Shown one piece after another: positions 3,252-19,258 of a DNA stretch of 64,000 nucleotides. The DNA comes from Pirellulales bacterium (GTDB taxonomy: Bacteria; Planctomycetota; Planctomycetia; Pirellulales; JAEUIK01): assembly GCA_019745975.1 (NCBI GenBank), contig JAIESQ010000013.1:86780-150779 (forward strand). Reading direction: 5' to 3'. The notes beneath the pieces were generated by a model. It searched no databases. It was not told where the DNA came from and was given only the letters and a program-made list of their open reading frames with translations. A program made the position numbers and the translations under genes. The number at the start of each line of letters is the position of its first letter. The first letter of the stretch is position 1.

Positions 3252-3278
3252 AAAATCGCTCCTAAAATCGCGGGGACA

Positions 3279-4260: not shown

Positions 4261-4353
4261 TCATAGGCGGCGACTTTGAATTGCCCTGAACACAGCGCAG
4301 CCCAGCAAGCCACCAGCTGCCATCAAGAACAACATTCCAAACATGGTGAGCAT
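4261..4353 (-). CDS. possible 30-aa hydrophobic peptide
   Basis: My own translation gives MLTMFGMLFLMAAGGLLGCAVFRAIQSRRL with GGAGA 6 nt upstream of the ATG. It is below the ORF-track size cut-off and has no other support. Confidence 0.2.
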   Translation of the reverse strand: MLTMFGMLFLMAAGGLLGCAVFRAIQSRRL

Positions 4354-5439: not shown

Positions 5440-6666
5440 TTATCTGCCCTTGACACGAAGGAACCTGTCCCGAAGCGCAGTTCGGGAGCACTCAATCGCT
5501 GGAGTCGCGGTCAAGCCCGCAGGAAACGAAGAGTTGCGGGGAGCCGTGCGAACGTCGAACATCGTCGACTCGTCAAAGTTGAACAGACTCTTGAAGCCCA
5601 AAGCGCTTGTGTCGGTAATTGGGAATCTGGGCGGCGGGAAGTAATTGTCAAACGCCAGGTTCAGGCCGCCTCCCTCCACCACAATTCCGGCGTTGATGGT
5701 TCCGCCGGTGAAGTGGATTCCTTGCGAATCGACCAGTCGAATAATTCCGCCGGTCGGCGGGTCGCCATAGATGTGGCAGCCACTTAAGGTGTAGCCCTGG
5801 TCGACGCTCTCCGCTTGGACGTTGAAGAGTTTGTTGTGGTTGATATTTGAGGCTGCGATGATGCCGTGCCCGCTATTGAATCCCGGCAGCAAGTGGATGC
5901 CAATTCGGTTGTCGACGACATTCGCAGCGGTGACGACGTTGTTGCCGCCTATGATTTCGGCGGCGGTATCATTGCCGTTAAACGACAGGAGCGTGAAGAG
6001 GTTGTATTCGGCCGTGCCCGCTTCGCCAAGATGCAAGCCTACGCCGTTGTTGACGAAGGAGACAAAAGCGAATTGCCCCTGGTCTCCGCGGCGCTTGGGT
6101 TGACCGGCGCCCTGAACGATGTGGATGCCATATCCCTTGAAATCCTTGACGGTGAGCTTATCGACGATGAATCGATTGCAGTTGGAAATGAACAGCCCCG
6201 CTTCCTGACCTGGTTCGTCGGCGGCAGTTCTGGTTCCCGCTAGTGTGAGCGGGCCTTGAAGCGTCCAGTCGTCCACGTCCATTGCCGACAAGATCGGCAG
6301 ATTATCGACTCTGTGAGTAATCGTGGCTCCCTCCGCTCGGAGGACGAGGCCGGTGGTCATCTTCAGCGTGCGATTGACAACGTAGGTGCGCTTTGGAATC
6401 ACGACAGTGGCGTTCTGTCTGGTTGCGTCCGCGAACGCTGCGGCAAACGCGGGCCCATCATCGGTGACGCCATCTCCGCGAGCGCCATAGTCAAGCACAT
6501 TGACGTCGCCACTATTCGACCGCAGGAGGGCGACGAACCGTTGTGGCATGGTGTGCCAGAGCGTGAAAACAAATGGCATGCCATAGAGCAAGATGAATCC
6601 GGCCGCGATCAGCAAGCGTGTTCGCGTGATCTTATGCTTGAGGCTCGGCCGAAGACTCGATTTCAT
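5440..6666 (-). CDS. membrane-anchored right-handed beta-helix (pectate-lyase-superfamily / tailspike-like) protein
   Basis: The DYGARGDGVTDDGPAF motif is typical of the Pectate_lyase_3 / GH28-related N-terminus. It is followed by repetitive beta-helix-like segments (NN..G, IH..G) and preceded by an N-terminal TM segment. Confidence 0.65.
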   Translation of the reverse strand: MKSSLRPSLKHKITRTRLLIAAGFILLYGMPFVFTLWHTMPQRFVALLRSNSGDVNVLDYGARGDGVTDDGPAFAAAFADATRQNATVVIPKRTYVVNRTLKMTTGLVLRAEGATITHRVDNLPILSAMDVDDWTLQGPLTLAGTRTAADEPGQEAGLFISNCNRFIVDKLTVKDFKGYGIHIVQGAGQPKRRGDQGQFAFVSFVNNGVGLHLGEAGTAEYNLFTLLSFNGNDTAAEIIGGNNVVTAANVVDNRIGIHLLPGFNSGHGIIAASNINHNKLFNVQAESVDQGYTLSGCHIYGDPPTGGIIRLVDSQGIHFTGGTINAGIVVEGGGLNLAFDNYFPPPRFPITDTSALGFKSLFNFDESTMFDVRTAPRNSSFPAGLTATPAIECSRTALRDRFLRVKGR

Positions 6667-6776
6667 TGTTCGCTCAAGTGTCTGTTCTCCGTGCTATTCG
6701 CATTCATTGCCACAGGGGGCGACGATTGTCACCTCGAATCTCTGTTGATCGCAGCCTCAGGATGCGCCAATTGTGC

Positions 6777-7796
6777 TTAGTAGCGCAGCACATAGGCCGG
6801 CGACTTGCTGAGCCGGTCGCGATTCCTGATGTACGTCAGCGTTGTCCTCGGGTCGGCGTGGCCAGCGAAGTCTTGTAGGTCGATGATATCGCTCCCTTGC
6901 TGGCGGGCGGTTGTCAGGGCCGTAACGCGGAATGAGTGGACCGTCACGTTCGGATCGAGGCGTAGATGTCGGACATACCTCTCAACCAACTTCTGAATAG
7001 CCCGCCTGGTAATTGGCTTCGCTACGAACCCCGTGGTGCCATTGGATCGGGCTGCCGTGCCGGGTCGAAACATCGGTCCAGTTGACTCTTGCCGAATACG
7101 AGCGGCATCGAGCCACGCTTCCAACCGCTCGGCCGCTTCGAGATGCAGTGGAACGCGGCGTTCCTTGCCCCCCTTCCCATGCACCTCAAGAATCTTGTGG
7201 ACGCCGGTGGTCTTGTAGCTGCCGACCTTGAGTCGTGTCAGCTCGCCGACGCGGCAGCCTGTATAGGCCAGGACGGCAAAGATGGCGCGATCGCGGACGC
7301 CGGCTGGCGTCACCTCGGAAGGCGCTTCAAGAAGTCGGCGACAATCCTCGGGTGTGAGCCCAACGGTCTTCCCGTCGCGCGGCGCCGACGGCGCAGCCAC
7401 GAAATCGGAATGCGCGGGATTGGCTCCCACAAATCCATAGGTCTGCAAATAGGAAAAGAGGGACCGCAATACCGTTAGCTTACGGCGAATGGAGCTGTTT
7501 GTGAGTCCCTGTGCTGCCAGGTGATCGCGCCAGCCCGCAACGTGATGCGGTCGTATGGCCGCAAGCTGGTCAACGTCGTTCGTGGGGTGACCGCAGAAAG
7601 TCAAGAATTGGCCGAGGTCCCGATCGTAGTTGGACCGCGTGTCCTGCGATGGCGATTTAAGAATCCAAGCTCGGGATGCTTCCTGAATGGGAGTCGTCGG
7701 ATCGGTCGCAATGATCGACGACGAATGGTTAACGATCGTCAACGATTTGGACGTTGGTGGTTGGGCAAGTTCGTTCGGGTCCATCGGATCGGTCAT
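6777..7796 (-). CDS. tyrosine recombinase / integrase
   Basis: The C-terminal catalytic region has AYTGCRVGEL (Arg), HSFRVTALT (HxxR) and GHADPRTTLTYI (His...Tyr). Confidence 0.85.
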   Translation of the reverse strand: MTDPMDPNELAQPPTSKSLTIVNHSSSIIATDPTTPIQEASRAWILKSPSQDTRSNYDRDLGQFLTFCGHPTNDVDQLAAIRPHHVAGWRDHLAAQGLTNSSIRRKLTVLRSLFSYLQTYGFVGANPAHSDFVAAPSAPRDGKTVGLTPEDCRRLLEAPSEVTPAGVRDRAIFAVLAYTGCRVGELTRLKVGSYKTTGVHKILEVHGKGGKERRVPLHLEAAERLEAWLDAARIRQESTGPMFRPGTAARSNGTTGFVAKPITRRAIQKLVERYVRHLRLDPNVTVHSFRVTALTTARQQGSDIIDLQDFAGHADPRTTLTYIRNRDRLSKSPAYVLRY

Positions 7797-7949
7797 GGTT
7801 CACCTAAAGTGGGTTGAACTAAACCGCTACGCGGTGGGTGAGGGTGCTGTACGGTTCGAGAGACAGGGCGATGTTTCAACTGAGACGGCGCTGTCAGCCG
7901 GGTCGACTCTCTGAACTGCATGCAGCAGTCGCGATTCTCTTCGATGCCG

Positions 7950-8483
7950 TTAGGTATCGCCTCCTAACACACCGTCACCCGTAATGACGAAGTGAGAGCC
8001 GTCGTCCCGGTGACCAAAGAGTCGCCAGTGCTCTGAGTACTCACCGCGACGTGAATCACATGGGAACGCTTCGAGCCCGAAGTCGCCACCCAGTGAAATC
8101 TGAAAGCCGCCGTAGTTGTCGCCGCAGGCGCTGACGACCTTCAGCGGCCTAAGCAAGCGTTGTGCGAACCATTCGAGCTGAACGACATCGAGCACCGAAG
8201 GGTTCTTGTCCCAGTCGAAATCGTCCCATGGGATGGCATCATCTGCGGGGTAGAGCAGGTCGTCACGTCCAAAAACAATGCTGTTAGCATCAACCAGTCG
8301 CCAACGACACTGAATGTGCAAGGAGAGCTGAGACACTTCGACCACCTCGCCTTTGCGATTCGTCTTCTTTTGGAGCGTGCCGAATCCAAACATCTGCATA
8401 TTGGCAGCTCGCGAACATTCGACGATCGGCTGGCCGACGAGCGAGCCCAATTCCGTGGTGATGCGTTCGGCAAGAGTGATCAT
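7950..8483 (-). CDS. hypothetical protein
   Basis: This 177-aa ORF has protein-like composition, but I recognise no domain. Confidence 0.45.
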   Translation of the reverse strand: MITLAERITTELGSLVGQPIVECSRAANMQMFGFGTLQKKTNRKGEVVEVSQLSLHIQCRWRLVDANSIVFGRDDLLYPADDAIPWDDFDWDKNPSVLDVVQLEWFAQRLLRPLKVVSACGDNYGGFQISLGGDFGLEAFPCDSRRGEYSEHWRLFGHRDDGSHFVITGDGVLGGDT

Positions 8484-8731
8484 CGGTAACGGCTCATCTT
8501 ATTTCGTTTCGTGCGGGAATTGGGCACATATGCCAGCAAATTGCTGATGCAGTCACAAATTCTCTCTTCCATAGTGACTGCCTGCTCGTGAATCAGATCA
8601 GCGAACCACGGGGGGCGGTGATAGTGCTCACGGTTGTATCGGTTGTAGGGACTTGCGCGCCGAGGTCAAGCGAATCAGGCTGAAGGAGAAGCGTGCAGCA
8701 TCTGTCTGTCCTATCTTTCGGAGCCTCGACC

Positions 8732-9583
8732 ATGACTGCGTTGCGCCAACGACTCATCGACGATTTGCAATTGAGGAACTTTTCACCAAAGACGCAACAG
8801 GCGTATGTGCAGGCGGTAGCGCGGTTCGCGCGGCACTTCAGGGCCTCGCCCGATCGGCTCGGGCCTGAGCAAGTTCGACAGTATCTCTTGTACCTGGTGA
8901 AAGAGAAGCACGCCGGATGGAGCACGTACAACGTCGCGCTCTGCGCGCTGCGGTTCTTCTACCAGACGACGTTGGGGCGGACGGCGCTGTTGGACGGCAT
9001 TCCCTGCCCGAAGGAGCCGAAGCGGCTGCCGGTGGTCCTGAGCCGCGACGAGGTCACGCAGTTTCTGGCGGCCGCGCCACGGTTCAAGTCGCGCGTGATG
9101 CTCACCCTGGGTTACGCCGCAGGGTTACGGGTTTCGGAGATTGTGGCACTGGAAGTAGGCGACATCGACAGTCGCCGAATGGTGCTGCGCATTCGCCAAG
9201 CGAAGGGGCGCAAGGACCGCTACGTGATGCTCTCGCCCAAACTGCTGGAGTTGCTGCGAACATACTGGAAGCGGGCACGGCCGAGACCGTGCGGCAACCT
9301 GTTCGCCAGTCGCACCGGCAAGCCGCTTTCGACTCGCACGGTGATTGTGACTTGTCGGCGAACGTTGCAACGGTCGAGACTCGCCAAGCACGTGACCGTG
9401 CACACCCTGCGGCACAGTTTTGCTACGCACCTGTTGGAAGCGGGGGTCGACCTGCGGACCATCCAGGTTCTCTTGGGACACCGCAGTCTGAAGACGACCG
9501 CCATCTATACGGCGGTATCGACCGAGCGGATCATGTCGGTGACCAGTCCCTTCGACGCGCTGGCGCCGATCGAAACGACGTAG
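8732..9583 (+). CDS. tyrosine recombinase (integrase type commonly paired with IS91-like transposases)
   Basis: The sequence reads MTALRQRLIDDLQLRNFSPKTQQAYV... with the catalytic motifs GLRVSEI, HTLRHSFATHLLE and LLGHRSLKTTAIYT. Confidence 0.85.
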   Translation: MTALRQRLIDDLQLRNFSPKTQQAYVQAVARFARHFRASPDRLGPEQVRQYLLYLVKEKHAGWSTYNVALCALRFFYQTTLGRTALLDGIPCPKEPKRLPVVLSRDEVTQFLAAAPRFKSRVMLTLGYAAGLRVSEIVALEVGDIDSRRMVLRIRQAKGRKDRYVMLSPKLLELLRTYWKRARPRPCGNLFASRTGKPLSTRTVIVTCRRTLQRSRLAKHVTVHTLRHSFATHLLEAGVDLRTIQVLLGHRSLKTTAIYTAVSTERIMSVTSPFDALAPIETT

Positions 9584-9600
9584 ATCGCGCGAAGGCCGAG

Positions 9601-10812
9601 GTGGGCGACGTGTTTCGCGCCGCGGGAGCCGAATTCCTGCAGCGACACGCCCATGTACTTCGCGGCGAACAACGCCGTGCGATCAAGGATCTGGCCGCCT
9701 GCCGCACCGCCGCGCTGGGCGGCCACGAAGAAGCCTGCGATGCGTGCGGCCATCGTCGCTTCGCGTACAACTCATGCCGCAATCGTCACTGCCCGAAGTG
9801 CCAAGCCTCGGCCCGCGCACGCTGGCTCGAAGCGCGCTCCGCCGAGCTGATCGACGTGCCGTACTTCCATGTCGTATTCACGCTGCCAGCGGAGTTCGGT
9901 CCTCTGGCACTTCATAATCCGCGCATGATTTATGGCCTGCTGTTTCGAGCGGCGTCCGAAACGCTCTTGCAAATCGCTGCCGACCGCAAGCACCTTGGCG
10001 CCGAGATCGGTTTTCTGGCCGTGTTGCACACCTGGGGTCAGAACCTGTTGCACCATCCGCACCTGCACTGCGTCGTGCCTTCCGGTGGACTATCCCCCAA
10101 CGGCCAAGGCTGGATCGCCGGGCGTGACGATTTCTTCTTGCCCGTACAGGTATTGAGTCGCGTGTTTCGCGGGAAGTTCATCGCCTTGGTCAAGCGTGCC
10201 TGTGAACGTGGTCAGTTGGTCTTTCCCGGCCGATTGCGCCCCTTGGAAGACCGGAACTGTTTTGAACAGCTGCTCGATCAGGCTGTCCGACAAGATTGGG
10301 TTGTCTACGCCAAACCACCATTCGGCGGCGCACCACAAGTACTCAAGTACTTGGCCCGCTACACGCACCGCGTGGCGATCGCCAACTCGCGGATCGCGAC
10401 GTTCGATGGCCAACGTGTGTCGTTCCGCTGGAAAGACTATGCCGATGATAACCAGCACAAAACGATGACCCTTGCGGCCGACGAGTTCATCCGCCGCTTT
10501 CTGATGCACGTTCTGCCGCGCGGCTTCACCCGCATCCGCTATTACGGCTTCCTGGCCAACCGCCATCGCGCGCAGAAGCTGGCCATCATCCGAGGGACGC
10601 TGGGGGCGTCGCTCACCGACGCTGCGGCCCAGTCACCGCCAGAAGCAGAAGCGCGCGCCGACGGCGAACCCGCCGGGGAGGTTTGTCCGGTCTGTAACTC
10701 AGGTCGAATCCACAAGGTAGCCATCCTGATACCTGTCGCCCCGCCACCGTTGAGCTGGCTGTTGCCAGCGGCGCATCGACACGGGCCAAGAATCGGGTGG
10801 GATACGTCGTGA
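9601..10812 (+). CDS. IS91-family (Y2 HUH) transposase
   Basis: The zinc-binding N-terminus is CRTAALGGHEEACDACGHRRFAYNSCRNRHCPKCQ, followed by FHVVFTLP, LHTWGQNLLHHPHLHCVVP and YLARYTHRVAI. I place the start at GTG 9601; the track ORF from 8917 overlaps the integrase in another frame. Confidence 0.85.
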   Translation: MGDVFRAAGAEFLQRHAHVLRGEQRRAIKDLAACRTAALGGHEEACDACGHRRFAYNSCRNRHCPKCQASARARWLEARSAELIDVPYFHVVFTLPAEFGPLALHNPRMIYGLLFRAASETLLQIAADRKHLGAEIGFLAVLHTWGQNLLHHPHLHCVVPSGGLSPNGQGWIAGRDDFFLPVQVLSRVFRGKFIALVKRACERGQLVFPGRLRPLEDRNCFEQLLDQAVRQDWVVYAKPPFGGAPQVLKYLARYTHRVAIANSRIATFDGQRVSFRWKDYADDNQHKTMTLAADEFIRRFLMHVLPRGFTRIRYYGFLANRHRAQKLAIIRGTLGASLTDAAAQSPPEAEARADGEPAGEVCPVCNSGRIHKVAILIPVAPPPLSWLLPAAHRHGPRIGWDTS

Positions 10813-11319
10813 CTCTCTTGACTCGGCTCAATCGGCTGCGACATAACATCGACGCTCTTGCGAGTGATCCACGCTCGCCTGCGCGCCGCAGGCACCACTT
10901 ATTCTTCCCATGAACCAAGTCATGTCACTCTCAGTCCGCTCTGACCGATATCGTGCCGACTTTCAGGCGCCGCCCCTTCGCGGCGCCCTCTCGGATGGGC
11001 CACTCTCGACACGGCGCGGTTTGATTGCATCTCCATAGTCGGGCCGCCCAGAGCGGTTTCGTTCAACCGGCTGTATCCGAAGTGCCGGTCCTCCGGCCAA
11101 TTACCATCGCTCACAACGCAACGCCCGCACCGCCTGAGACCGTCCGCGGCAGGGGCACTTCGGATACAGCCCTCTGGGTTAGGCGCACCATAGCAGGCCT
11201 GTGGTATCCGCGCAACGGTTTTCAATCAGGGGATCGCAACAGTAAACGTTCATTAACCATTCTTTAGGGAGATGCGTGCTAGAAAAGAAGGAGATGCTCA
11301 ATTGAATGAATAGGTCTCT

Positions 11320-11697
11320 ATGACGGGCGAGAAGGATGCACCTGCGACAACGCCGCCGATGTCGATTACCCTCGGACGCATGTTCCTCGTTGCGGCCGAA
11401 CTCGCCACATGGACGGAAGATGAGCGGGCGTGGTTGAAGTCTCGGCCGAAGTATCAGGAGTACGAAGGCTCATTGCGAGACGCAATCGCCGAATTCAGAT
11501 TCAAAGAGCTACTGACCACGGATCAGCTCGTTGCGTTCTCGAACAACGAAGCCTGGGCACCATTCCAAAACAGGCTTGACGACTTGGTGGAGCGTCGCGT
11601 GTCGCTTCTCGATGGTTTTGGTCAGCAGGTAAAAGGAAATCTGTTTTCGCAGCGGATCGATCGCGAACATCGCGGACCGAGCGAGCCTTGGCGGTAG
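11320..11697 (+). CDS. hypothetical protein
   Basis: This 125-aa ORF has no recognised domain and its start is uncertain. Confidence 0.4.
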   Translation: MTGEKDAPATTPPMSITLGRMFLVAAELATWTEDERAWLKSRPKYQEYEGSLRDAIAEFRFKELLTTDQLVAFSNNEAWAPFQNRLDDLVERRVSLLDGFGQQVKGNLFSQRIDREHRGPSEPWR

Positions 11698-11721
11698 CGA
11701 GATTCGTCAAAGCTATTTGCC

Positions 11722-12804
11722 TCATGCATTCGGATTGCTCGCTCGAAGTCCCAAGCTGATGAGAATCCCAGAAAGCAAAGCCTCCTGCCCGGACGACGCA
11801 GGTTTGACAACCAACTCCCATAACGGTTGTCCGCTCTTATGCTCGTAGTTTCCTGTTGGACGGAACTGGTAACCCTTTGCACGCACTTCAGAGAGAGGAA
11901 ATGCCACACGGTTCAAGATGTGGAGCGGCTCGGCAAGTCTGTCTGGACAGGTGCACAGGGCGCCGACTTGAGAATCAATTGCGAGGGCGAGGTAACGGGT
12001 GGGATCACCTGAAAGCCCCGAGTCGACAGCGGAGCGTTGAGCAAAGCCCTCCAGAAACACGTGGCGGGTTGGGAACTGCAAATCCGAAACACCAACCTCA
12101 GAGGCCATTCGTTTGCCGGCACGTATTTCGTGGTATGCCTCTGCTGTCAGAGGCAAGACAATCGTCATGCCAACTGCCGCTCGTCGGCCTCTGACGACAT
12201 TTACGGTCCACGGGTTGGTGCGCCACCAGTCTATGGCGCGAGCCTCGTATGCATTCAAGGCTATGCCGATCATCGCCTCCGCTGTCTGGATGGCCTTTGC
12301 CGCCGTGAGATGATTCGCATCAGGGCTGACGGCTCGCGCAAGATAGGCGTACATCCACCGCACCGCTTGTCTGACCTGTGACGCACGTTTCGTCGGCGCC
12401 GGCGGAGCTTCCGAGTTGGTTTGGGAGCACAATGCTTCCAGCAGGCCGGGAACACCATCCGCCAACAAGTCTCGCTCCTGTTCCAACAGGTGCTCCGCCA
12501 GGGCGCGAGCCGAATGTGATGCTGGCTCAACGATCCCGCGAGCCCGGATGAATTCGAGGAATGCCGCGGCGCGATCGTCGGTCGGTTCCCCTGCCGCCAC
12601 TTTGTCAATGAAGTACTGGGCCAGAAGCGCAGCAAAATGCGGCGCGACAGCGGCGCCGCGTTTCATGTTCGTATAGACATCGCTGCGAATTGTCTTTCCC
12701 CTCGCTCGCACCGAATGTACGAACTCTTCTGTCAATGGCCACGCACGGCGCTCGGACATGAACGCACGAAAATCGGGAGAAAGGACGCGGCTGACTTTGT
12801 ACAT
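11722..12804 (-). CDS. hypothetical protein (360 aa)
   Basis: The start MYKVSRVL at 12804 has AAGGAG 6 nt upstream. The upstream part of the 452-aa track ORF is probably not coding. No domain recognised. Confidence 0.5.
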   Translation of the reverse strand: MYKVSRVLSPDFRAFMSERRAWPLTEEFVHSVRARGKTIRSDVYTNMKRGAAVAPHFAALLAQYFIDKVAAGEPTDDRAAAFLEFIRARGIVEPASHSARALAEHLLEQERDLLADGVPGLLEALCSQTNSEAPPAPTKRASQVRQAVRWMYAYLARAVSPDANHLTAAKAIQTAEAMIGIALNAYEARAIDWWRTNPWTVNVVRGRRAAVGMTIVLPLTAEAYHEIRAGKRMASEVGVSDLQFPTRHVFLEGFAQRSAVDSGLSGDPTRYLALAIDSQVGALCTCPDRLAEPLHILNRVAFPLSEVRAKGYQFRPTGNYEHKSGQPLWELVVKPASSGQEALLSGILISLGLRASNPNA

Positions 12805-12924
12805 GGGTACTCCTTGGACCGGGGCGCGAAAAACGTTACCCAAACTCTCGCGAGATTGAAAGTCCAAACGCCACATATTCTCGCGGGAAATTGTTGAGCG
12901 CTGCTGACGCGATTCTTGCTCGCT

Positions 12925-13058
12925 GGTTTCCCAGATTTTCCCAAATCGTACTCCTCGGCGACGGGTCATCGAATGATAGAAATCGCGAACGCGGGTCATG
13001 GTGCGAAGGTGTGGGAGAACCTCGCACTCGTGCGGTTTCCCGGGTTTTCCCAAATGGT
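12925..13058. repeat. two 25-nt direct repeats in the island control region
   Basis: GGTTTCCCAGATTTTCCCAAATCGT (12925-12949) and GGTTTCCCGGGTTTTCCCAAATGGT (13034-13058) match at 22 of 25 positions. They lie between the divergent 11722-12804 gene and the parB-containing block. Confidence 0.6.
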
Positions 13059-13280
13059 TGTCCACGAGGTGGACTCTCAAATTATTGGATTGGAGAACAA
13101 GTCATGGAGTTTCTAACGGCATTGGCGGGTTGGGCAGTGGTGCGGGCAGCAGCGGTGGTGCTTGAACGCGCTCTGGAGTGCGCGACACGAAAGCGCTAGC
13201 GAGCGATTAGTTAGTTGCGGGATGGCGGCACGGTGCCGCCCTCCGTTCATTCAGCGAATGGTCTTGTCAGGAGAGATGTG

Positions 13281-13553
13281 ATGAAGGGTATTCATCCGGC
13301 AGTTTATCTGATCGTGGCGGCTTTCTACGCTTTATGCCCCCTCGACGGGGACTTCATACTTGTGGGGGGCTGGCTCGATGATTTGCTGGTCGCGTTTATT
13401 TGCATAAGGGAATTCAACAAGCGCACGCGCGGCCCTGGGCCAGGGCAGCCTGGTGGAATGGCGATCGATGTGGAGCATTGCCCGGCTCCACCAAGGATTC
13501 AATCGCCTGTCGACCTCCTTGTCACGGCGAAGGGCAATCCAAACCTGAATTAG
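13281..13553 (+). CDS. DUF1232 (YkvA-like) membrane protein
   Basis: AVYLIVAAFYALCPLDGDFILVGGWLDDLLVAF matches the DUF1232 pattern (PxD...G.lDD). ATG 13281 is the likely start within track ORF 13215..13553. Confidence 0.6.
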   Translation: MKGIHPAVYLIVAAFYALCPLDGDFILVGGWLDDLLVAFICIREFNKRTRGPGPGQPGGMAIDVEHCPAPPRIQSPVDLLVTAKGNPNLN

Positions 13554-13570
13554 GCGAAAGGAGTCGCGAC

Positions 13571-14389
13571 ATGAAGGTCCAACTAGATCGACTTCCTTTG
13601 GAGCGCAACCCCCGCACAAAGGTGGAGGAAGCCAAGATCGCTGCGCTTGCACACACGCTCCAACTGGTCGGTCAGCAGGTGCCGATCAGTCTTCGGGCGG
13701 CGGGCGAGGAGTTCGAATTGACCGATGGTATGTGCCGGGTTCTTGCGGCTCGCAAGCTGGGCTGGACGGAAATCGAAGCCATTGTCGATGAGCATGAGCT
13801 GAACGAGGCAGAAGTGCTACAGCGTCAAGTAGTCATCCACCATCAACGGGCTGACCTGCCTCCGCTCGATAAGGCGCGGGCAGTCTCGCGGCTGATGGAA
13901 GTCGCTGGTTGCAATGCATCGCAGGCTGCCTCGAACCTGGGAATGTCGAACGCCACGGTGACAAGGCTACTAAGCCTCCTGACTTTGCCAGAAGACATTC
14001 AACGGCAAGTGGAGTCCGGAAAGCTCGCTGCGAGCACGGCCTATGAGTTGGCGCGTACTGGCGATCCAACAAAGCAAGCGGAGCTGGCCGACGCTGCCTC
14101 AAACGGAAGTCTCTCGCGGGATGCGGTGTCTGGGCATGTGAAAAGGATGAGAAAGCCTCGGAGCTCGAATGGTCGTGGCAGCGGCTTGCGCGCCGTTGCT
14201 CCGCTTGGTGACGGTCGGAGCTTAACGGTCACCGGCATCGAGCCGTCGCTCGATGGTTTTATCGCATGTCTGGAAGACGCATTGAGTCGGGCGCGCAGAG
14301 TGCGCACCAAGGGCCACTCTTTGGCCACCTTCTGCAAGACGCTGCGGGATGAGGCGAAAACTCACGCACATCAAGGAGCAATGCCATGA
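13571..14389 (+). CDS. ParB/Spo0J-like DNA-binding protein
   Basis: The ParB N-terminal-like region is QQVPISLRAAGEEFELTDGMCRVLAARKLGW, followed by the HTH ASQAASNLGMSNATVTRLLSLLTLPEDIQ. The start is ATG 13571 inside the longer track ORF. Confidence 0.75.
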   Translation: MKVQLDRLPLERNPRTKVEEAKIAALAHTLQLVGQQVPISLRAAGEEFELTDGMCRVLAARKLGWTEIEAIVDEHELNEAEVLQRQVVIHHQRADLPPLDKARAVSRLMEVAGCNASQAASNLGMSNATVTRLLSLLTLPEDIQRQVESGKLAASTAYELARTGDPTKQAELADAASNGSLSRDAVSGHVKRMRKPRSSNGRGSGLRAVAPLGDGRSLTVTGIEPSLDGFIACLEDALSRARRVRTKGHSLATFCKTLRDEAKTHAHQGAMP

Positions 14390-15903
14390 CGCAAGACCAA
14401 CAGCAAATGCTCGGCGGAGTGATGATGCTCCTCGTCGTCGTGCTCATCATCGGGAATCGGTATCGCGTGCGGGGTCGTGGTAGCCGGAATCTGGATCAAG
14501 TGCTGTTTGCCTGGAACAAGCACGACAAGTTCACGGTCCGCGGCCTGCTTGACGGCGGGGTGTCAATTCTCGGCCGCACCGGCAGTGGCAAGACGAGTGC
14601 CGCAGGCAGGCACCTCGGTGAGGCGATCGTCGGCAACCGCAATAGCTCAGGGCTGATCTGCGGGGCAAAGCCCGAAGATCTCGCCATGTGGCAGGGCATC
14701 TTCAAACGCGCGGGGCGATCGAAGGATTTGCTCGTGATGGAGCCGGGTGGAGACCTACGGATTAACTTCCTTGAGGAAGCGTCCCGGTACGGCGGTCAGA
14801 CTCGGGAGATCACGCAGTTCATCACCACGGTCGGCGAGACTCTGAGACGCGGCCATAACCAACGCCGGATGGAAGGCGCGGATTTTTGGGAAGCGCAGGC
14901 CGAACGGCGCATCTACAGCGCCGTGGAGGTGCTGCGGCTGGTCAAAGGGACGGTGACCGCTCCCGACCTTCAGCAATTCATCATGACCGCGCCTCTCAAG
15001 GCTACTCAACTGCGAGAGGAAGGCTGGCGATTGAGCTTTCATGGCAAGTGCATCGAAGCGGCGTATGCCAAGGCAAAGTCGACGACGGAAGAGCATGACT
15101 TCCAGATTGCTTGCGATTACGAGCTTGATGAGCTGCCCAACATGGCCGACAAGATGCGCTCGTCGATCATCACGACGGTCCTGGGGATACTTCACGTCTT
15201 CAATAGCGGTGTCGTCCGCGAGACGGTCTCGACGCGGACAGACGTGCATCTCAGGGACATTGTTGAGGGACGGAAGTTCCTCTTCATAAACGCTCCGCCA
15301 TCATCGCACGGCGCCACGGGTACCTTTCTGAACGTAGGTGCAAAGCACCTCATGGAACTGGTGATGCTGCAACGGGAAGTGAATGCGAATAGTCCGTTCC
15401 ATGTAATCTGGTGCGACGAGGCGCCTCAACTAGTTACGAGCTTCGACAGCCACAGCTACGTTCCACAATGTCGTTCTCATCGGGGCTGCATGGTGCTGTT
15501 GGGCCAATCGCTTCCTTCATATTACACCGCGTTTGGCGGAGAGAATGGCAAGCAACAAGCCCATGAAATGCTGGCTAACTTCGGCCATCACATTATCCAC
15601 GCTTTAGGCGACATCGAATCGGCGGAATGGGCCAGCGCGCTCGTGGGCAAGCAGTTGGAGACGTTCTTCGGCGGCTCGATGCAGCCAGCGCAAGACAGCT
15701 TCGATCAGTTGTTCGGCAATCAGCAATTCACTGGCAGTTTCTCGACGCAGTACCAGCCGAGGTTACAGGCAAGTGCATTCATGCAGGGGCTTCGCACGGG
15801 CGGGCCTCAGAACTTGTACTTGGCGGATGCCTTCGTGATTAAGACCGGCGAACCGTTTTCCAATGGCAATAACTGCCTCCAGGTGACATTCAGCCAGAGG
15901 TGA
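14386..15903 (+). CDS. TraD/TrwB/VirD4-like membrane-anchored P-loop NTPase (coupling-protein-like)
   Basis: It has an N-terminal TM segment (GGVMMLLVVVLIIG), Walker A LGRTGSGKTSAAG and a Walker-B-like FHVIWCDEAPQL. An ATGA overlap with the parB-like stop suggests translational coupling. Confidence 0.6.
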   Translation: MTQDQQQMLGGVMMLLVVVLIIGNRYRVRGRGSRNLDQVLFAWNKHDKFTVRGLLDGGVSILGRTGSGKTSAAGRHLGEAIVGNRNSSGLICGAKPEDLAMWQGIFKRAGRSKDLLVMEPGGDLRINFLEEASRYGGQTREITQFITTVGETLRRGHNQRRMEGADFWEAQAERRIYSAVEVLRLVKGTVTAPDLQQFIMTAPLKATQLREEGWRLSFHGKCIEAAYAKAKSTTEEHDFQIACDYELDELPNMADKMRSSIITTVLGILHVFNSGVVRETVSTRTDVHLRDIVEGRKFLFINAPPSSHGATGTFLNVGAKHLMELVMLQREVNANSPFHVIWCDEAPQLVTSFDSHSYVPQCRSHRGCMVLLGQSLPSYYTAFGGENGKQQAHEMLANFGHHIIHALGDIESAEWASALVGKQLETFFGGSMQPAQDSFDQLFGNQQFTGSFSTQYQPRLQASAFMQGLRTGGPQNLYLADAFVIKTGEPFSNGNNCLQVTFSQR

Positions 15904-15906
15904 ATC

Positions 15907-16491
15907 ATGTTCCATCAGCAGCGCCATCATGATGGCCAGGAGTTTGGAGGCTGGGACTTCCGAACGAAGTTCAACCTCGCCTACCTAGTGGTCAGCGGGT
16001 TTACGACGTGCTTCACCGTGTTCCTGCGCCACCGCTTCGGCAGAGAGGCATTAGGGCTGCGGGCCGTCATCGGGATTCTGGCGATGGTTGTCTACATGGC
16101 GACGTATCCAGAGAGCGCAGCCATGAGCGGATACTTTTTTCTGTGGTGGATCGCGCTGGTCTTGCAACGTTTGGGGCACTTTGTGCGGCGCACGAAGGGG
16201 ATCGTACTGCACAGCCGCTTTGAAGGCGAGCCGTGGATTGGTGCGCTGCTGCCGCCGGCGCTGCGCGAAGGCGGGGCCAAGTTTCTTGAGGTCGTACTGT
16301 GCGTGCTGGTTGCCGCCATGCTCCAAGGCGATGACATGGCTCTTGCCAACTTCATGTTTCTGGGCGCTGCCAGCCTAACGGTGAAGGCAGTCATTGACGG
16401 CCGTGCGGACTACCGGCGGGTGGCTCAGATGCGTGATGCAGAAATCGAGCAGCGGGCCATGTTGGACCGCTGGCGAGGAGGTCGTTTTTAG
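15907..16491 (+). CDS. polytopic membrane protein, hypothetical
   Basis: This 194-aa ORF has several hydrophobic segments and starts 3 nt after the upstream stop. Confidence 0.55.
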   Translation: MFHQQRHHDGQEFGGWDFRTKFNLAYLVVSGFTTCFTVFLRHRFGREALGLRAVIGILAMVVYMATYPESAAMSGYFFLWWIALVLQRLGHFVRRTKGIVLHSRFEGEPWIGALLPPALREGGAKFLEVVLCVLVAAMLQGDDMALANFMFLGAASLTVKAVIDGRADYRRVAQMRDAEIEQRAMLDRWRGGRF

Positions 16492-16503
16492 AAGGAGGGT
16501 GTC

Positions 16504-16770
16504 ATGGCTGATGACCATCGTTCCACGAGACCGTCATTTTGGGCGCCGTTGAAGGAGGCATTTGATAGAGGACGTGGGGAAATCGCGCAATCGCTCTCGG
16601 CATTTCCAGACAGCATTCGGCCGGTGGAAGTTGCGGCGGCGTCCCAACATCACAGCCCAGAAATGGAGGCGTCAGACAAAGGGTCGGTCCACGGCTACAA
16701 CCGGATGCTCGATTCCTACGCGGACCGCGGGATGCAGCGTGAGGAACCTGAACAGGAAATGGAGCGGTGA
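16504..16770 (+). CDS. hypothetical acidic protein (88 aa)
   Basis: A strong RBS, GAAGGAGGG, lies 5-6 nt upstream of ATG 16504. Confidence 0.5.
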   Translation: MADDHRSTRPSFWAPLKEAFDRGRGEIAQSLSAFPDSIRPVEVAAASQHHSPEMEASDKGSVHGYNRMLDSYADRGMQREEPEQEMER

Positions 16771-16833
16771 ATCATGGTGATCCTTGCAATCGCAGTTCTG
16801 TTGGTGATCGCACTGCCGCAGGAGGACTGAGCG

Positions 16834-16974
16834 ATGTCGTTCTCAGGATTGTTGTTTTTCGGAATGTGCTGGGGTTGCTACAAGCTCGGCTTCTACCAGG
16901 CCACGAATCCCGGCGAAGTGGAACGACTCGGCCGCCTCGCCTGGGAGCGTCTCGGGCGGTGGCTGAGCAAATAG
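16834..16974 (+). CDS. small single-TM protein (46 aa)
   Basis: My own translation gives MSFSGLLFFGMCWGCYKLGFYQATNPGEVERLGRLAWERLGRWLSK with GGAGGA 7 nt upstream. A further 18-aa TM ORF (16774-16830) precedes it. Confidence 0.4.
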   Translation: MSFSGLLFFGMCWGCYKLGFYQATNPGEVERLGRLAWERLGRWLSK

Positions 16975-17023
16975 TGAATGTCTGTGTCTTGGCGTTTTCT
17001 AACCTCGAAGGGAGTGCGTGATC

Positions 17024-17179
17024 ATGGAAGCCGTAATTTTTCTGGGGCTCATTTCGTGCGGGATCTTCTGGTACTTCATGCTCCGCAGCGCGGGACGTGC
17101 CGCCAAGAAGGCGATCAGCGACAATCCGCAAATAGCGATGACCGCGATCAAAATCGCCGCCGACATGCTTCGCAAGTAA
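17024..17179 (+). CDS. small single-TM protein (51 aa)
   Basis: My own translation gives MEAVIFLGLISCGIFWYFMLRSAGRAAKKAISDNPQIAMTAIKIAADMLRK with AAGGGAG upstream. Confidence 0.4.
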   Translation: MEAVIFLGLISCGIFWYFMLRSAGRAAKKAISDNPQIAMTAIKIAADMLRK

Positions 17180-17249
17180 GAAACCAGATAAGCCGGGGGT
17201 GCTCGTCGCGCCCCCCGGCTTTTCATTCGTACCCGGGAAGGAGGTCAAC

Positions 17250-17501
17250 ATGTCGATGGCACAACAAGCTGCGGAAGGCGGCCAGGAGCCGCTGCTGATT
17301 ACCGCGGACCAGCTTGCAGCGTGGCTTCAGGTGTCGGTGCGCTCACTTTGGCGTCTGCGAAGCGCCGGACAGATTCCGCCACCGCTTCGCCTTCGCAAAG
17401 CCGTCCGCTGGCGTCTTGCGGATATCGAAGACTGGCTCGCAAAGGGCTGTCCCGCAAACTCGGAAGAGCCGGAGGCGCGACAAAGGCGTCGCTCGCGGTA
17501 A
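17250..17501 (+). CDS. AlpA/excisionase-family HTH DNA-binding protein
   Basis: LITADQLAAWLQVSVRSLWRLRSAGQIPPPLRLRKAVRWRLADIEDWL is the excisionase-type HTH pattern, and the gene lies immediately upstream of an integrase. Confidence 0.7.
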   Translation: MSMAQQAAEGGQEPLLITADQLAAWLQVSVRSLWRLRSAGQIPPPLRLRKAVRWRLADIEDWLAKGCPANSEEPEARQRRRSR

Positions 17502-17542
17502 AATGGATTACGGTTCGCAGTCTGACTCTCGGAGCATGGATC

Positions 17543-18958
17543 ATGGCATCGGTCTACAAGCGGACGTGCAAAAACGGCAAGCCGAGCAAGTATTGGTACT
17601 TTTCCTATACGGACGAGAATGGGAAGCGCCGCATGGCGCGTGGCCTCACCGACAAGCGGCTTACCGAGCAGCTCGCGGCCAAACGCGAGGAGCAAGGGGA
17701 CCGGGTCCGTACCGGTTTAGTCGACCCGGCCGAAAAGCAACGTGCCGAAGCCCGGAAGGCGGCACTCTCATCGCATGTCGATGCGTTTGAGAACCATCTG
17801 AATAGCAAGGGCAATACGGGCAAGCACAACAAGCTGACGCTCAGTCGCATTCGTGCTGTGATTGAAGATGGGGCAATGGCGACGCTCGCCGACTTCACGG
17901 TCGAGGCCGTCGTCGAAGTTCTCCAGGACTTTCAAAAGGAAGATGACATTGGGCACCGGACATACAACCACTACGTCCAGGCGCTCGACGGCTTCGGCCG
18001 CTGGCTGGTCGCTTCCGATCGCGTGCTGAGCAACCCGCTCAAGGGTTTGCCTCGGCTCAATAGTGCCGAAGATGTACGGCACAAGCGCCGTGCGCTCTCG
18101 GCCAAGGAATTGGCCGCGCTGGTCGCCTCGGCAGAGACCAGCAAGAAAAAGGTCCAGGGCTACCCCGGCTGGCTTCGGGCGATCCTGTATCGCTTCGCCT
18201 ATCTCACCGGCCTGCGGCGGCGCGAATTGGGGAGCCTGACGACGAGCAGCTTCCAGTTGGATGATGAGACGCCGATATTGACGGTCGAGGCCGCCTGCTC
18301 GAAGCATCGCAAGAAAGACACCTTGCCGATTCATCCCGAACTCTTGGGCCTTCTCCGCGAATGGCTCCCGACACTCGATGCGGGCGCCCCACTCTTCCCG
18401 AAGTTGGAACGCAAGAAGACCTGGCGGATGGTGAAGACCGACCTCAAGGCAGTCGGCATCGAATACGAAACGGCGGAAGGCATTGCCGACTTCCATGCCT
18501 GTCGGCACTCGCACGTTTCCGGCTTGGTCAACAGCGGCGTGTCGCTGGCCCATGCCCGGCAGCTTGCCCGGCACGGCGACATTCGGATGACGATGAAATA
18601 TTTTCATGGGGACCTCCAGACGCAGGCTGAAGGACTGAGGTCGCTGCCAGGTCTCAATTCACTCGAACCGAAGTCAGAAGCGCTGCCAAAACCCGCAGCC
18701 CGCGATGCGAGCAGCGCGGACAAGGTGCAGCGCAATAGCATCGCGCCAGAGCCCCTTGGGGGTCATTCCGTGTCATTTGCTGGCACGCAAGTGGGCGACG
18801 ATCCGAGCGTCGTACCAATAAAAAACCCCTGCTCTGACAGGGGTTACGACGCCGAGGGTCACTCGGTGTCATCTGGTGGCAAAACTGCCAAAAAGTGGAG
18901 GCGGCGGGAATCGAACCCGCGTCCCGAAACGTTTCCACGCCAGCTTCTACGTGTGTAG
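17543..18958 (+). CDS. tyrosine integrase; the 3' extent is uncertain because the ORF reads into ssrA
   Basis: The sequence starts MASVYKRTCKNGKPSKYWYFSY..., with catalytic motifs YLTGLRRREL, HACRHSHVSGL and ARHGDIRMTMKYFH. There is no stop until 18958, which is 63 nt inside the tmRNA gene. Confidence 0.8.
   Translation: MASVYKRTCKNGKPSKYWYFSYTDENGKRRMARGLTDKRLTEQLAAKREEQGDRVRTGLVDPAEKQRAEARKAALSSHVDAFENHLNSKGNTGKHNKLTLSRIRAVIEDGAMATLADFTVEAVVEVLQDFQKEDDIGHRTYNHYVQALDGFGRWLVASDRVLSNPLKGLPRLNSAEDVRHKRRALSAKELAALVASAETSKKKVQGYPGWLRAILYRFAYLTGLRRRELGSLTTSSFQLDDETPILTVEAACSKHRKKDTLPIHPELLGLLREWLPTLDAGAPLFPKLERKKTWRMVKTDLKAVGIEYETAEGIADFHACRHSHVSGLVNSGVSLAHARQLARHGDIRMTMKYFHGDLQTQAEGLRSLPGLNSLEPKSEALPKPAARDASSADKVQRNSIAPEPLGGHSVSFAGTQVGDDPSVVPIKNPCSDRGYDAEGHSVSSGGKTAKKWRRRESNPRPETFPRQLLRV
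18818..18845 (-). terminator. intrinsic terminator downstream of ssrA
   Basis: The minus strand reads AACCCCTG-TCAGAG-CAGGGGTT followed by TTTTTATT, about 50 nt past the tmRNA 3' end. Confidence 0.6.
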
Positions 18959-19258
18959 CCGATAGTTTGAGTCTCGCTCTGGCAGCCCCCATCGGCAGGG
19001 TCCGCTTCGAGCCAGCCGGGAACGGTTTTTAACCTCGGGCGTGCCCAGCAGTGACCCGAGGCGAGCTGGAATTGTCAACCGACTTTTGGGCCTCTCCAGC
19101 GGGAGCCCCGCAGTCGGGGATGCCTATTTAACTAGGCAGCCAAAGCATAGGAACCTTCGGCAATTGAAGGTATTGGTCGGCTTTTTAACGTGGCCAGCTG
19201 ACCAACCACGACACGCCACTTGCGCTTCAATCCGTCCGGTCGAACCCAGTTCGCCCCC
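18896..19258 (-). ncRNA. ssrA: tmRNA (transfer-messenger RNA)
   Basis: The 5' end GGGGGCGAACUGGGUUCGAC pairs with the 3' end CGCCUCC-A, giving an acceptor stem with a G3:U pair. The T-arm is GCGGGUUCGAUUCCCGC. An internal tag frame GCC GAA GGU UCC UAU GCU UUG GCU GCC UAG (19161-19132) encodes AEGSYALAA-stop. Confidence 0.9.

Follow-up and report, generated by a model that had tools for sequence, protein, structure and literature searches.

Our analysis indicates that the gene block at positions 13281-18958 of the window, the 64-kb stretch of Pirellulales DNA examined here, is probably the conserved half of a small integrative mobilizable element belonging to a family specific to Planctomycetota. 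This half carries the type IV coupling protein (T4CP), ParB, and the functions for excision and integration, and the present copy lies at the 3' end of a tmRNA gene. The block is a partly seen mobilizable element and not a novel type of transfer system. The features concerned are as follows.

6777..7796, - strand: second tyrosine recombinase, probable cargo region (PF00589, 1e-26)
8693..10812, + strand: IS91-family unit within the island, consisting of a tyrosine recombinase ORF and a Y2 HUH transposase (Phage_integrase, 9e-42; Y2_Tnp, 4.5e-66; Zn_Tnp_IS91, 5e-32)
11722..13080, - strand: divergent orphan ORF, annotated as 360 aa (11722-12804)
13281..13553, + strand: small membrane protein, 90 aa, first gene of the block, N-terminal half hydrophobic
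13571..14389, + strand: ParB/Spo0J-family HTH protein, 272 aa (HTH_ParB, 5e-16; ParB_N, 8.5e-6; TIGR00180, 1.4e-26)
14386..15903, + strand: membrane-anchored T4CP of the VirD4/TrwB type, 505 aa, from a divergent planctomycete clade (Pfam, fold, and homologues)
15907..16491, + strand: mem194, polytopic membrane protein, 194 aa, 4-5 hydrophobic segments
16504..16770, + strand: p88, acidic soluble protein, 88 aa, conserved family (ORF cluster)
16774..16830, + strand: candidate hydrophobic mini-ORF, 18 aa, MVILAIAVLLVIALPQED (frame translation)
16834..16974, + strand: p46, small protein, 46 aa, N terminus hydrophobic (tblastn)
17018..17179, + strand: single-TM protein, 53 aa, TM segment at residues 1-24
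17199..17501, + strand: xis, excisionase/AlpA-type HTH_17 protein (PF12728, 6e-9; phrog_66 excisionase, 2.3e-12)
17543..18958, + strand: tyrosine integrase, 471 aa (PF00589 Phage_integrase, 4.6e-17)
18893..19258, - strand: complete tmRNA (ssrA) gene (Rfam RF00023, 162 bits, model positions 1-374)

Every ORF named in an earlier note on this DNA was found in its place, and the positions and spacing bear out its description of a co-directional, tightly packed block. The genes form a single operon-like unit that runs from the small TM protein through ParB, the T4CP, mem194, p88, and mini-ORFs of 18, 46, and 53 aa to xis and the tyrosine integrase, with successive gaps of 17, -4, 3, 12, 63, 43, 19, and 41 nt. 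The negative gap is the ATGA at 14386-14389, wherein the stop codon of ParB overlaps the start codon of the T4CP, and the 63-nt gap is occupied by the 18-aa ORF. Since this gene order is kept across dozens of genomes, the block is well beyond chance. Its first gene found no match in Pfam, NCBIfam, or a tblastn search of the related loci, and the DUF1232-like label previously given to it reflects a motif resemblance that no HMM supports. A genuine DUF1232 gene is present in the corresponding upstream region of one relative, L164.

The 505-aa protein matches PF02534 (T4SS-DNA_transf; 2.4e-9, 37 bits, cut-off 20.1) as well as TraG-D_C and TrwB_AAD_bind. It possesses a single N-terminal TM segment (residues 4-26), a Walker A motif (GRTGSGKT), and a Walker B motif (VIWCDEA), and all residues invariant in its family, those of both Walker motifs included, are retained. 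The best Foldseek matches of its AF2 model (pLDDT 88.7) were Cagbeta (6e-12), TrwB (7e-10, TMt 0.70), and DotL, with HerA far weaker. A profile of the family retrieved no PDB sequence, and the homologues, at 47-58% identity, fall into >200 clusters, nearly all from Planctomycetota. By its fold and Pfam domains, the ATPase is of the VirD4/TrwB type and not an FtsK/TraB-type translocase, to which it had been compared.

That comparison underlay the analogy preferred in the earlier note, namely, with actinomycete AICEs (pSAM2 type: Int/Xis, Rep, FtsK-like TraB, and Spd). In this scenario, one FtsK/TraB-type translocase and Spd-like membrane proteins would transfer double-stranded DNA without a relaxase. 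The likenesses are a small element integrated at a tRNA-type site, a single transfer ATPase with small membrane proteins adjoining int/xis, and a window devoid of a relaxase. However, the fold of the ATPase and the relaxase of its relatives contradict the analogy: neither FtsK/SpoIIIE nor TraB structures were among the 50 best structure matches, Pfam returned no FtsK_SpoIIIE match, the family uses a TrwC relaxase-helicase, and an AICE-type Rep was not found. AICE-like transfer is therefore scarcely credible.

The relatives provide the main support for a mobilizable element. Our survey comprised 73 loci from species-representative genomes, 69 of them family members, and the ParB-T4CP-membrane-p88-xis-recombinase module recurs in ~69 Planctomycetota loci. 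ParB immediately precedes the T4CP in 47 of the 61 loci having upstream sequence, and mem194, which directly follows the T4CP here, lies within 0.7 kb downstream of it in 55 of 60. In 41 loci, the downstream sequence is long enough to judge: 31 have an HTH_17 gene ahead of the recombinase, 23 a serine recombinase, and 4 a tyrosine integrase, the two recombinase types being interchangeable across the family. The co-occurrence survey that had been proposed links the module to xis and a recombinase across genomes.

TrwC and/or p171 were found upstream on the same strand, about 2-10 kb away (2.2-9.7 kb), in 19 of the 43 relatives whose upstream sequence covers at least 8 kb. TrwC is a MOBF relaxase-helicase (PF08751, 1e-70, plus AAA_30), and p171 is a conserved ~170-aa partner beside it; both lie at the element's other end. 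Among the carriers of this linkage are Blastopirellula marina DSM 3645, which is cultured, and Planctomicrobium sp. SH527, which has it twice. In L164, TrwC is encoded 9.4 kb upstream of ParB, with the DUF1232 gene and a sigma-like HTH gene in between, and is 68% identical to TrwC of the window-like locus L049; in L025, L035, and L037, TrwC/p171 lies at the extreme edge of the flank. The other 24, such as L011, show no TrwC in their 8-10 kb of upstream sequence and may include a relaxase-less subtype.

Pairwise comparisons delimit the elements. L044 and L015 are homologous over ~12.2 kb, starting ~780 bp ahead of trwC and ending just beyond the recombinase. For L024 and L026, which come from different species representatives, homology begins ~120 bp ahead of trwC and ends ~80 bp past the recombinase, with a nucleotide identity of 88-95%. 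Complete elements measure 12-17 kb and consist of a short noncoding left end, trwC and p171, 1-10+ kb of variable cargo, and then ParB-T4CP-mem194-p88-small TM proteins-xis-recombinase. No VirB4 or mating-pore (MPF) genes were found in them, and the family loci hold no conserved large ORFs besides those for TrwC, the T4CP, and the recombinase.

Since relatives that share the module encode a canonical MOBF TrwC at the far end of the element, the family appears to use relaxase-based processing of single-stranded DNA. In the mechanism that we propose, Xis and Int would excise the element from an ssrA or tRNA gene, TrwC would nick oriT and then unwind the DNA, and the TrwB-like T4CP, as a hexamer anchored by its one TM helix, would take the relaxase-ssDNA complex and pass it to a T4SS acting in trans. 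The conserved membrane and small proteins would serve as accessories of the T4CP. A mobilizable element parasitising a T4SS elsewhere, which the earlier note had listed as an alternative, is thus the best-supported reading, given the VirD4-type T4CP, TrwC in relatives, and the absence of an MPF.

With respect to the TrwA-TrwB-TrwC Dtr module of R388 (IncW), the family is alike in having a T4CP of the TrwB fold (TMt ~0.70) and similar length and a TrwC-family relaxase. In contrast, its T4CP shares just 12-14% sequence identity with TrwB and has one predicted TM helix, TrwA is lacking, with ParB in the accessory position, and the family is chromosomally integrated with no Trw/VirB mating-pore operon adjoining. 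No helper element is known for the family.

A 2024 preprint (bioRxiv 10.1101/2024.01.22.576637) used MOBscan/MacSyFinder to count 29 MOBF relaxases on 21 planctomycete chromosomes, where a T4CP is often found alongside and no complete MPF is reported; one MPF_T plasmid is known from Phycisphaera. These chromosomal loci are probably the same elements as the present family. The claim that no such module had been described for planctomycetes therefore fails for MOBF-T4CP pairs without an MPF but holds, as far as the accessible part of the preprint goes, for the architecture of ParB, T4CP, and membrane proteins. Element boundaries, tRNA/tmRNA integration, ParB-T4CP coupling, and mem194/p88, described here, are likewise absent from that part. 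The borrowed pore is hypothetical, as no helper T4SS was identified in any genome hosting these elements and the literature records no complete chromosomal MPF for the phylum.

In another hypothesis, the T4CP forms a VirB4-independent DNA translocon with mem194, p88, and small TM proteins, which makes the element self-transmissible without a helper T4SS. The phylum's apparent want of a chromosomal MPF in that preprint would fit, as would the conservation of the membrane and small proteins within the T4CP operon, the high identity between elements of different species representatives, and the fact that elements so small and devoid of an MPF are yet widespread, with several copies per genome. 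However, mem194 and p88 show no structural or sequence tie to any T4SS component, and helper systems may be too divergent for detection or plasmid-borne. To our knowledge, all characterised relaxase-dependent conjugation systems use a VirB4-family ATPase, and mobilizable elements generally outnumber conjugative ones. We consider self-transmission improbable.

It was also suggested that the ParB-ATPase pair serves exclusion or defence, targeting incoming DNA or phage rather than mediating transfer. PADLOC/NCBIfam did yield weak matches (mad8, 3.6e-5, for the ATPase; mad1, 0.027, for the HTH_17 protein), and family islands may bear defence cargo, such as the Wadjet-like genes and AbiE of L163. 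Nevertheless, these matches are low-scoring (21 bits; 13-18 bits) and generic (P-loop, HTH_17), no methyltransferase or further MADS component was found, and the module's strict linkage with xis/recombinase and TrwC across genomes marks it out as serving transfer, making a defence role very unlikely.

The ParB assignment of the earlier note was upheld by the HMM matches. An AAGGAG RBS places the true start at ATG 13571 and not at 13400. Translation of ParB is coupled to that of the T4CP, and no ParA partner accompanies it; most likely, ParB would be a DNA-binding adaptor or a regulator for the operon (KorB-like or TraM/TrwA-like) rather than act in ParA-driven partition.

The island's right-hand junction lies at the tmRNA gene, whose 3' end is the attachment site; the last ~22 codons of the integrase extend into this end, an overlap that the earlier note had missed. 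ARAGORN did not call this tmRNA. The integrase is 43-46% identical to its positional counterparts in L009, L011, and L072, which adjoin tRNA-Pro, a tRNA fragment, and tRNA-Ser, respectively; tRNA-Pro, -Ser, -Gln, -Arg, and -Leu are neighbours of the relatives. The likely start of xis is ATG 17250, preceded by a GGAGG RBS.

To the left, the island probably extends beyond the block, as suggested by the GC content, which is 0.55-0.61 between ~3 and 19 kb (with a local rise to 0.64 at the IS91-family unit) and 0.63-0.69 outside this range, by the cargo-type recombinase at 6777-7796, and by the lack of any repeat of the tmRNA end in 1-18800, where no left boundary is thus marked. Because this recombinase is 64-66% identical to genes between TrwC/p171 and ParB in the TrwC-bearing L014 and L054, we argue that the island reaches at least that far. 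HMM searches of the island ORFs of at least 300 aa detected no relaxase, VirB4, or phage structural domains, and TrwC queries taken from relatives had no match anywhere in the 64 kb; the search of the source contig (152,828 bp) covered the best 120 of 1925 matches. The absence of a relaxase and T4SS reported in the earlier note thus stands for the window, but the ATPase cannot be called lone for the copy as a whole, as the island's left end lies outside the window.

The orphan ORF was proposed as a place for a cryptic relaxase or Rep, but none was detectable by Pfam, NCBIfam, PHROG, or PADLOC, all without a match. A search of 5.8 billion proteins retrieved nothing but the ORF itself, and relatives have unrelated divergent genes at this position, often HTH_3 regulators.

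Given a window without TrwC or a left tmRNA-end repeat, and with IS91-family and IS4/DDE_5-family elements upstream of the block, the relaxase end of the present copy would either lie past the start of the window, >14 kb upstream, or have been lost by IS-mediated rearrangement. Since TrwC, p171, and a recognisable oriT were all missing from the window, this copy may truly lack a relaxase; if that end was lost, the copy could at best be mobilised in trans. A decayed or domesticated, immobile remnant, with its ParB-T4CP operon neutral or kept for another role, is a minor though real possibility, and the orphan ORF and further copy-specific genes immediately upstream, together with a ParB whose GERR CTP-binding box reads as a noncanonical GMCR, would fit it. 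However, all nine block ORFs are intact, the T4CP keeps its invariant residues, the GxCR variant also occurs in the TrwC-keeping elements L014 and L056, and the missing repeat fits an island of >18.9 kb equally well.

Neither mem194 nor p88 has a relative in Pfam or PDB. In an alignment of 26 mem194 sequences, R41, G45, R88, and G107 are invariant and a C-terminal MRDAEIEQ motif is conserved; the p88 cluster, found in 53 loci, shares the core VEEPGTxGNPTPQ and an acidic C-terminal tail. The 53-aa single-TM protein had no match in the related loci. The position of the 18-aa mini-ORF is held by ORFs of 41-42 aa in L003 and L080, and p46 has tblastn matches of 39-50% at the equivalent position in L011, L036, L040, L043, and L049.

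The ORF list and direct reading of the sequence agree on the co-directional plus-strand block described in the earlier note. The observation made there is confirmed, and its interpretation, an AICE-like mover of double-stranded DNA with a mobilisable element or a defence module as alternatives, stands in part: the best-supported model for the island and its family is an integrative mobilizable element (IME). The block ends at an integration site that had been overlooked, a complete tmRNA gene (ssrA) found with Rfam.

Features of the block and of its integration site (window coordinates, strand, description)
13281-13553, plus: 90-aa hydrophobic protein (ORF list)
13571-14389, plus: ParB, 272 aa, AAGGAG ribosome binding site (HTH_ParB 5e-16, TIGR00180 1.4e-26)
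14386-15903, plus: 505-aa ATPase, ATGA overlap with parB at 14386-14389 (T4SS-DNA_transf 2.4e-9)
15907-16491, plus: mem194, 194-aa membrane protein with 4-5 hydrophobic segments
16504-16770, plus: p88, 88-aa acidic protein (ORF list)
16774-16830, plus: mini-ORF of 18 aa (direct reading)
16834-16974, plus: mini-ORF of 46 aa (ORF list and direct reading)
17018-17179, plus: mini-ORF of 53 aa (ORF list and direct reading)
17199/17250-17501, plus: HTH_17 excisionase, xis (HTH_17 6e-9)
17543-18958, plus: tyrosine integrase (Phage_integrase 4.6e-17)
18893-19258, minus: complete tmRNA gene (Rfam, 162 bits)

The name "DUF1232-like" previously given to the first of these proteins is without any HMM support. 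The integrase ORF enters the 3' end of the tmRNA gene by about 65 nt, and together with the HTH_17 excisionase it forms an integration and excision module of the element's own at a specific site, as an IME would have. ARAGORN, despite the Rfam match, returned no tRNA or tmRNA gene across the window. Between about 3 kb and 19 kb the GC content is 0.55 to 0.61; to the right of the tmRNA gene it is 0.63 to 0.69.

By its predicted fold, the 505-aa ATPase appears to have the defining features of a VirD4/TrwB-type coupling protein (T4CP) and to fail the defining feature of the AICE translocase TraB. It exceeds the curated Pfam cut-offs for T4SS-DNA_transf (PF02534, 37.0 bits, cut-off 20.1), TraG-D_C (PF12696, 23.0 bits, cut-off 22) and TrwB_AAD_bind (PF10412, 22.2 bits, cut-off 20.5), and it carries the Walker A motif GRTGSGKT and the Walker B motif VIWCDEA; residues G63, G66, K69, D344, and E345 are the same in every sequence of the family alignment. 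An AlphaFold (AF2) model built from a 28-sequence family alignment (mean pLDDT, 88.7; pTM, 0.84) has a single N-terminal transmembrane helix, a RecA-like core, and a helical insert at about residues 128 to 294; the RecA-like nucleotide-binding domain with both Walker motifs and an all-alpha insert is the arrangement seen in the TrwB structure. Foldseek, the comparison that the earlier note had proposed, placed three solved T4CP types at the top, namely, Cagbeta of Helicobacter pylori (6e-12), TrwB of R388 (7e-10; target TM-score of about 0.70), and DotL of Legionella (3e-8), with HerA-type ATPases ranking behind them at 1e-6 or weaker. The membrane anchor is one hydrophobic helix, at residues 4 to 26; TrwB has two transmembrane helices. 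Since a 28-sequence profile found nothing at an E value of ≤0.01 among PDB sequences, the T4CP family appears to be divergent in sequence, and only distant relatives, at 22 to 27% identity, were found in the plasmid collection.

The AICE-like reading, in which an FtsK/TraB-type translocase would move the element, is contradicted by this fold and by the linkage of the family to TrwC, a MOBF relaxase-helicase. The ATPase has no FtsK_SpoIIIE Pfam match, the top 50 Foldseek matches listed for its model include no structure of FtsK/SpoIIIE or TraB, and no AICE-type Rep domain (RepSA/RepAM) was found in any island ORF. A same-strand TrwC/TraI gene is found some 8 to 10 kb upstream in Blastopirellula marina DSM 3645 and in Planctomicrobium sp. 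SH527; a representative TrwC matches PF08751 (1e-70) and AAA_30 (1.7e-46), and right after TrwC there is always a conserved protein of about 170 aa with no known domain (p171). Of the 43 relatives whose upstream sequence spans at least 8 kb, 19 have TrwC and/or p171, with p171 lying 2.2 to 9.7 kb from the T4CP gene and variable cargo occupying the space between. As p171 is found at the outer limit of the retrieved flank in several further loci (L025, L035, and L037), the true TrwC-linked fraction is higher. Many relatives with the same module carry the relaxase, and the description of the module as relaxase free has to be corrected.

The TrwC-bearing locus L049 shares p88 and the 46-aa mini-protein with the window, and two L049-like loci, L163 and L164, were viewed with 10 kb on either side of trwC. 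In L164, 9.4 kb separate TrwC from the downstream ParB gene, which is immediately preceded by genes for a DUF1232 protein and a sigma-like HTH protein. In L163, an ECF-sigma/Ser-Thr-kinase pair follows TrwC; because a pair of the same type precedes the module in L011, these pairs are suggested to be cargo and the TrwC gene of L011 to lie outside the fetched flank. No oriT motif was recognized upstream of trwC in 14 relatives, where the sole find was a promoter- or operator-like element, GTTAAGGAA...TTAACGAATC...TAAAAT, located 17 to 44 nt upstream of the trwC ORF start in 8 of them (L021, L026, L029, L019, L020, L065, L061, and L024).

Homologs of the T4CP fall into more than 200 clusters at 47 to 58% identity, with Pirellulales, Blastopirellula marina, Planctomicrobium, and Fimbriiglobus as named sources. 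A scan of species-representative genomes yielded 73 loci, nearly all from Planctomycetota and with two copies in some genomes; Fimbriiglobus ruber and Aeoliella are among the carriers. The ORFs of all these loci were clustered and reference proteins were mapped by tblastn; 69 of the loci belong to the family. This co-occurrence survey, likewise proposed earlier, shows that the trio of ParB, T4CP, and mem194 recurs, followed by an HTH_17 gene and a recombinase. ParB is directly upstream of the T4CP in 47 of the 61 loci with sequence there, mem194 is directly downstream in 55 of 60, and 53 loci have a member of the p88 family. Where at least 6 kb of downstream sequence was available (41 loci), 31 loci have the HTH_17 gene, 23 have a serine recombinase, and 4, the window among them, have a tyrosine integrase; the relatives adjoin tRNA-Pro, -Ser, -Gln, -Arg, and -Leu genes. 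Neither mem194 nor p88 has Pfam relatives, and their profiles gave no meaningful matches to PDB sequences; both are genuine protein families, with conserved residues in their alignments. By sequence comparison, the module is a conserved unit found across the planctomycetes. The hallmarks of the family are ParB-T4CP coupling, conserved uncharacterized membrane proteins, and interchangeable recombinases.

A membrane protein in a similar position is found on plasmid 1 of Nitrosospira multiformis (L165; NC_007615.1, 850-5188; 18.9 kb with 19 annotated genes; typed by MOB-suite as "conjugative, MPF_T"). Besides MobC, a MOBP relaxase, and two small ORFs, this plasmid encodes a distant T4CP relative (24% identity) and, overlapping it, a 195-aa membrane protein. 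The latter is a positional analog of mem194, with homology undetectable by hhalign (probability, 1.5%).

Comparison of related loci delimits the element. Between L044 and L015, DNA homology extends from about 780 bp upstream of trwC to just past the recombinase gene, about 12.2 kb, and is broken at the cargo alone; between L024 and L026, which come from different species representatives, it extends from about 120 bp before trwC to about 80 bp after the serine recombinase gene, at 88 to 95% nucleotide identity. ORF clustering identified TrwC, the T4CP, and the recombinase as the only conserved large ORFs of the family loci, so that complete elements encode no VirB4 or other mating-pore (MPF) protein, for which the 12 to 17 kb of the delimited relatives would leave no room. 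Correspondingly, VirB4/MPF domains were found neither among the island ORFs of the window nor in any related locus; the complete MPF set, including a VirB4-family ATPase, that would mark an integrative conjugative element is lacking, as is expected of an IME. This agrees with a 2024 preprint (bioRxiv 10.1101/2024.01.22.576637), which lists 29 MOBF relaxases spread over 21 planctomycete chromosomes, notes that a T4CP is "often" present alongside, and reports no complete chromosomal MPF system for the phylum. Our element belongs to an IME-type family probably noticed there already, whose architecture the accessible text does not describe.

As an IME, the element would be excised from ssrA by Xis and Int, TrwC would nick and unwind the DNA at a putative oriT, and the TrwB-like T4CP would pass the nucleoprotein to a T4SS supplied in trans. 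The abundance of these elements in a phylum for which no complete chromosomal MPF is reported would also fit a family of self-transmissible conjugative elements that dispense with VirB4 and a canonical mating pore, a reading which conflicts with all characterized relaxase-dependent systems and which we consider very improbable. We give equally little credence to the corresponding machinery, a minimal single-stranded DNA translocon of T4CP, mem194, and mini-proteins fitted to the planctomycete envelope, with ParB as the DNA-loading adaptor. If movement without a conventional T4SS were true, the accepted minimal requirements for conjugation would change. The defence alternative of the earlier note fell away when PADLOC was run: mad8 (3.6e-5, 21 bits) and mad1 (0.027) of the MADS system were the only matches, both weak and generic, and no other components of this or another system, including the methyltransferase, were found.

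The ParB protein scores 59.1 bits against HTH_ParB (cut-off, 22.6), 93.4 bits against TIGR00180 (cut-off, 58.45), and 26.2 bits against ParB_N, 0.1 under the cut-off. In place of the GERRxRA CTP-binding box and the ENxxR motif, it reads GMCRVLAA and HHQR. Most relatives retain GERR and ENxHR, a minority including B. marina have GGCR, and the boxes in L014, L030, L056, L043, L011, and L009 read GGCR, GHRR, or GFHT; the replacement of GERR by these variants and by GMCR suggests ParB sub-lineages that may lack CTP binding or hydrolysis. Neither the block nor the related loci contain a ParA-type gene, and a non-exhaustive look upstream of parB found no striking repeated palindrome that could serve as parS; a ParABS partition system with cognate ParA and parS sites was thus not recognized. 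From the lack of a ParA partner and the translational coupling to the T4CP gene, a stop/start overlap also found in cultured strains, we infer that ParB acts as an adaptor or regulator (KorB-like or TraM/TrwA-like) and not in partition.

The claim of a lone T4CP without relaxase or T4SS holds within the 64-kb window and is unsafe as a conclusion on the element, whose left end was not found and whose relatives carry TrwC. Neither type of TrwC nor p171 has a match anywhere in the window, the promoter-like element found upstream of trwC is absent, and no oriT was recognized. These absences raise the possibility that the window copy is a decayed remnant, which we regard as plausible but unlikely; the GMCR box of its ParB is a lineage trait and not proof of decay, because some elements that carry TrwC, that of B. 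marina for example, have the GGCR variant. Since no direct repeat of the tmRNA 3' end was found in 1-18800 by repeat search, 3-mismatch patterns, or blastn-short (the best match was an 11-mer inside an ORF, with nothing above chance), the left end of the island either lies before the window start or has been destroyed. A tmRNA gene was near homologs of the neighboring GT2 gene in none of the seven long metagenomic loci tested, and synteny is therefore not conserved at that distance. An exact 41-mer taken from the start of the window had no match among the metagenomic contigs.

Features of the left flank (window coordinates, strand, description)
6777-7796, minus: second tyrosine recombinase, 64-66% identical to cargo-region genes of TrwC-bearing L014 and L054
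8693-10812, plus: IS91-family unit, a tyrosine-recombinase ORF and then an overlapping Y2 HUH rolling-circle transposase (Y2_Tnp 4.5e-66, Zn_Tnp_IS91)
11722-13080, minus: orphan divergent ORF of 360/452 aa (annotated as a 360-aa hypothetical protein, K2Y37_02945), no domain match

The orphan ORF had been suspected of encoding a cryptic relaxase or Rep; neither was found, as it has no domain matches and no homologs, its sole match among 5.8 billion proteins being its own sequence. The IS91-family unit lies inside the island, with a higher local GC content of 0.64, and the upstream 13 kb also holds an IS4/DDE_5 transposase gene and a pectate-lyase-like gene. The second recombinase is all that the window has in common with the L014 and L054 cargo, the neighbors being different; weaker homologs precede the module in L011, L031, L038, L039, L042, and L046, and the gene has the look of a recurrent cassette. 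Many metagenomic contigs (L007, L008, L009, L018, L028, L036, L043, L045, L072, and L080-L082) stop at parB or shortly before it, 0.3 to 4 kb upstream of the T4CP gene, which suggests that assemblies break at the cargo junction because this region varies between strains or is repeated.

To our knowledge, conjugation between planctomycetes has never been demonstrated; the relaxase-T4CP family is nonetheless abundant, with several copies per genome that are near identical across species. Its architecture offers concrete targets for the first work on conjugation in the phylum, namely, the element limits, the tRNA and tmRNA sites, ParB-T4CP coupling, and the membrane proteins, with B. marina DSM 3645 and Planctomicrobium sp. 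SH527 as cultured hosts, and could serve as a basis for genetic tools. For the window itself the gain is more modest, a corrected view of a supposedly relaxase-free island that is visible only in part.

Signs of tandem accretion are seen in two relatives: in L164 (1-12784), the intact trwC is preceded by a fragmented second TrwC copy and a P4-type integrase, and L011 has, at 14050-14120, a lone 3' tRNA fragment after the integrase, followed by mobile-looking PD-(D/E)XK nuclease and amidase genes. Beside trwC in L163 (1-9600), the opposite strand carries members of anti-phage defence families: Wadjet-like genes (JetB/MksE, DUF3375, and an SbcC-like ATPase), AbiEi/AbiEii, and a methyltransferase. 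Within the window, 27954-31500 forms a patch with a low GC content of 0.56, whose genes were characterized by reading their translations only.

Features of the low-GC patch (window coordinates, strand, description)
27954-28895, minus: 313-aa protein
28892-30469, minus: Vsr-like endonuclease fused to a cytosine-5 methyltransferase
30517-31500, plus: N4/N6 methyltransferase-like protein

These genes appear to encode a restriction-modification cluster, and the patch is probably a separate small island.
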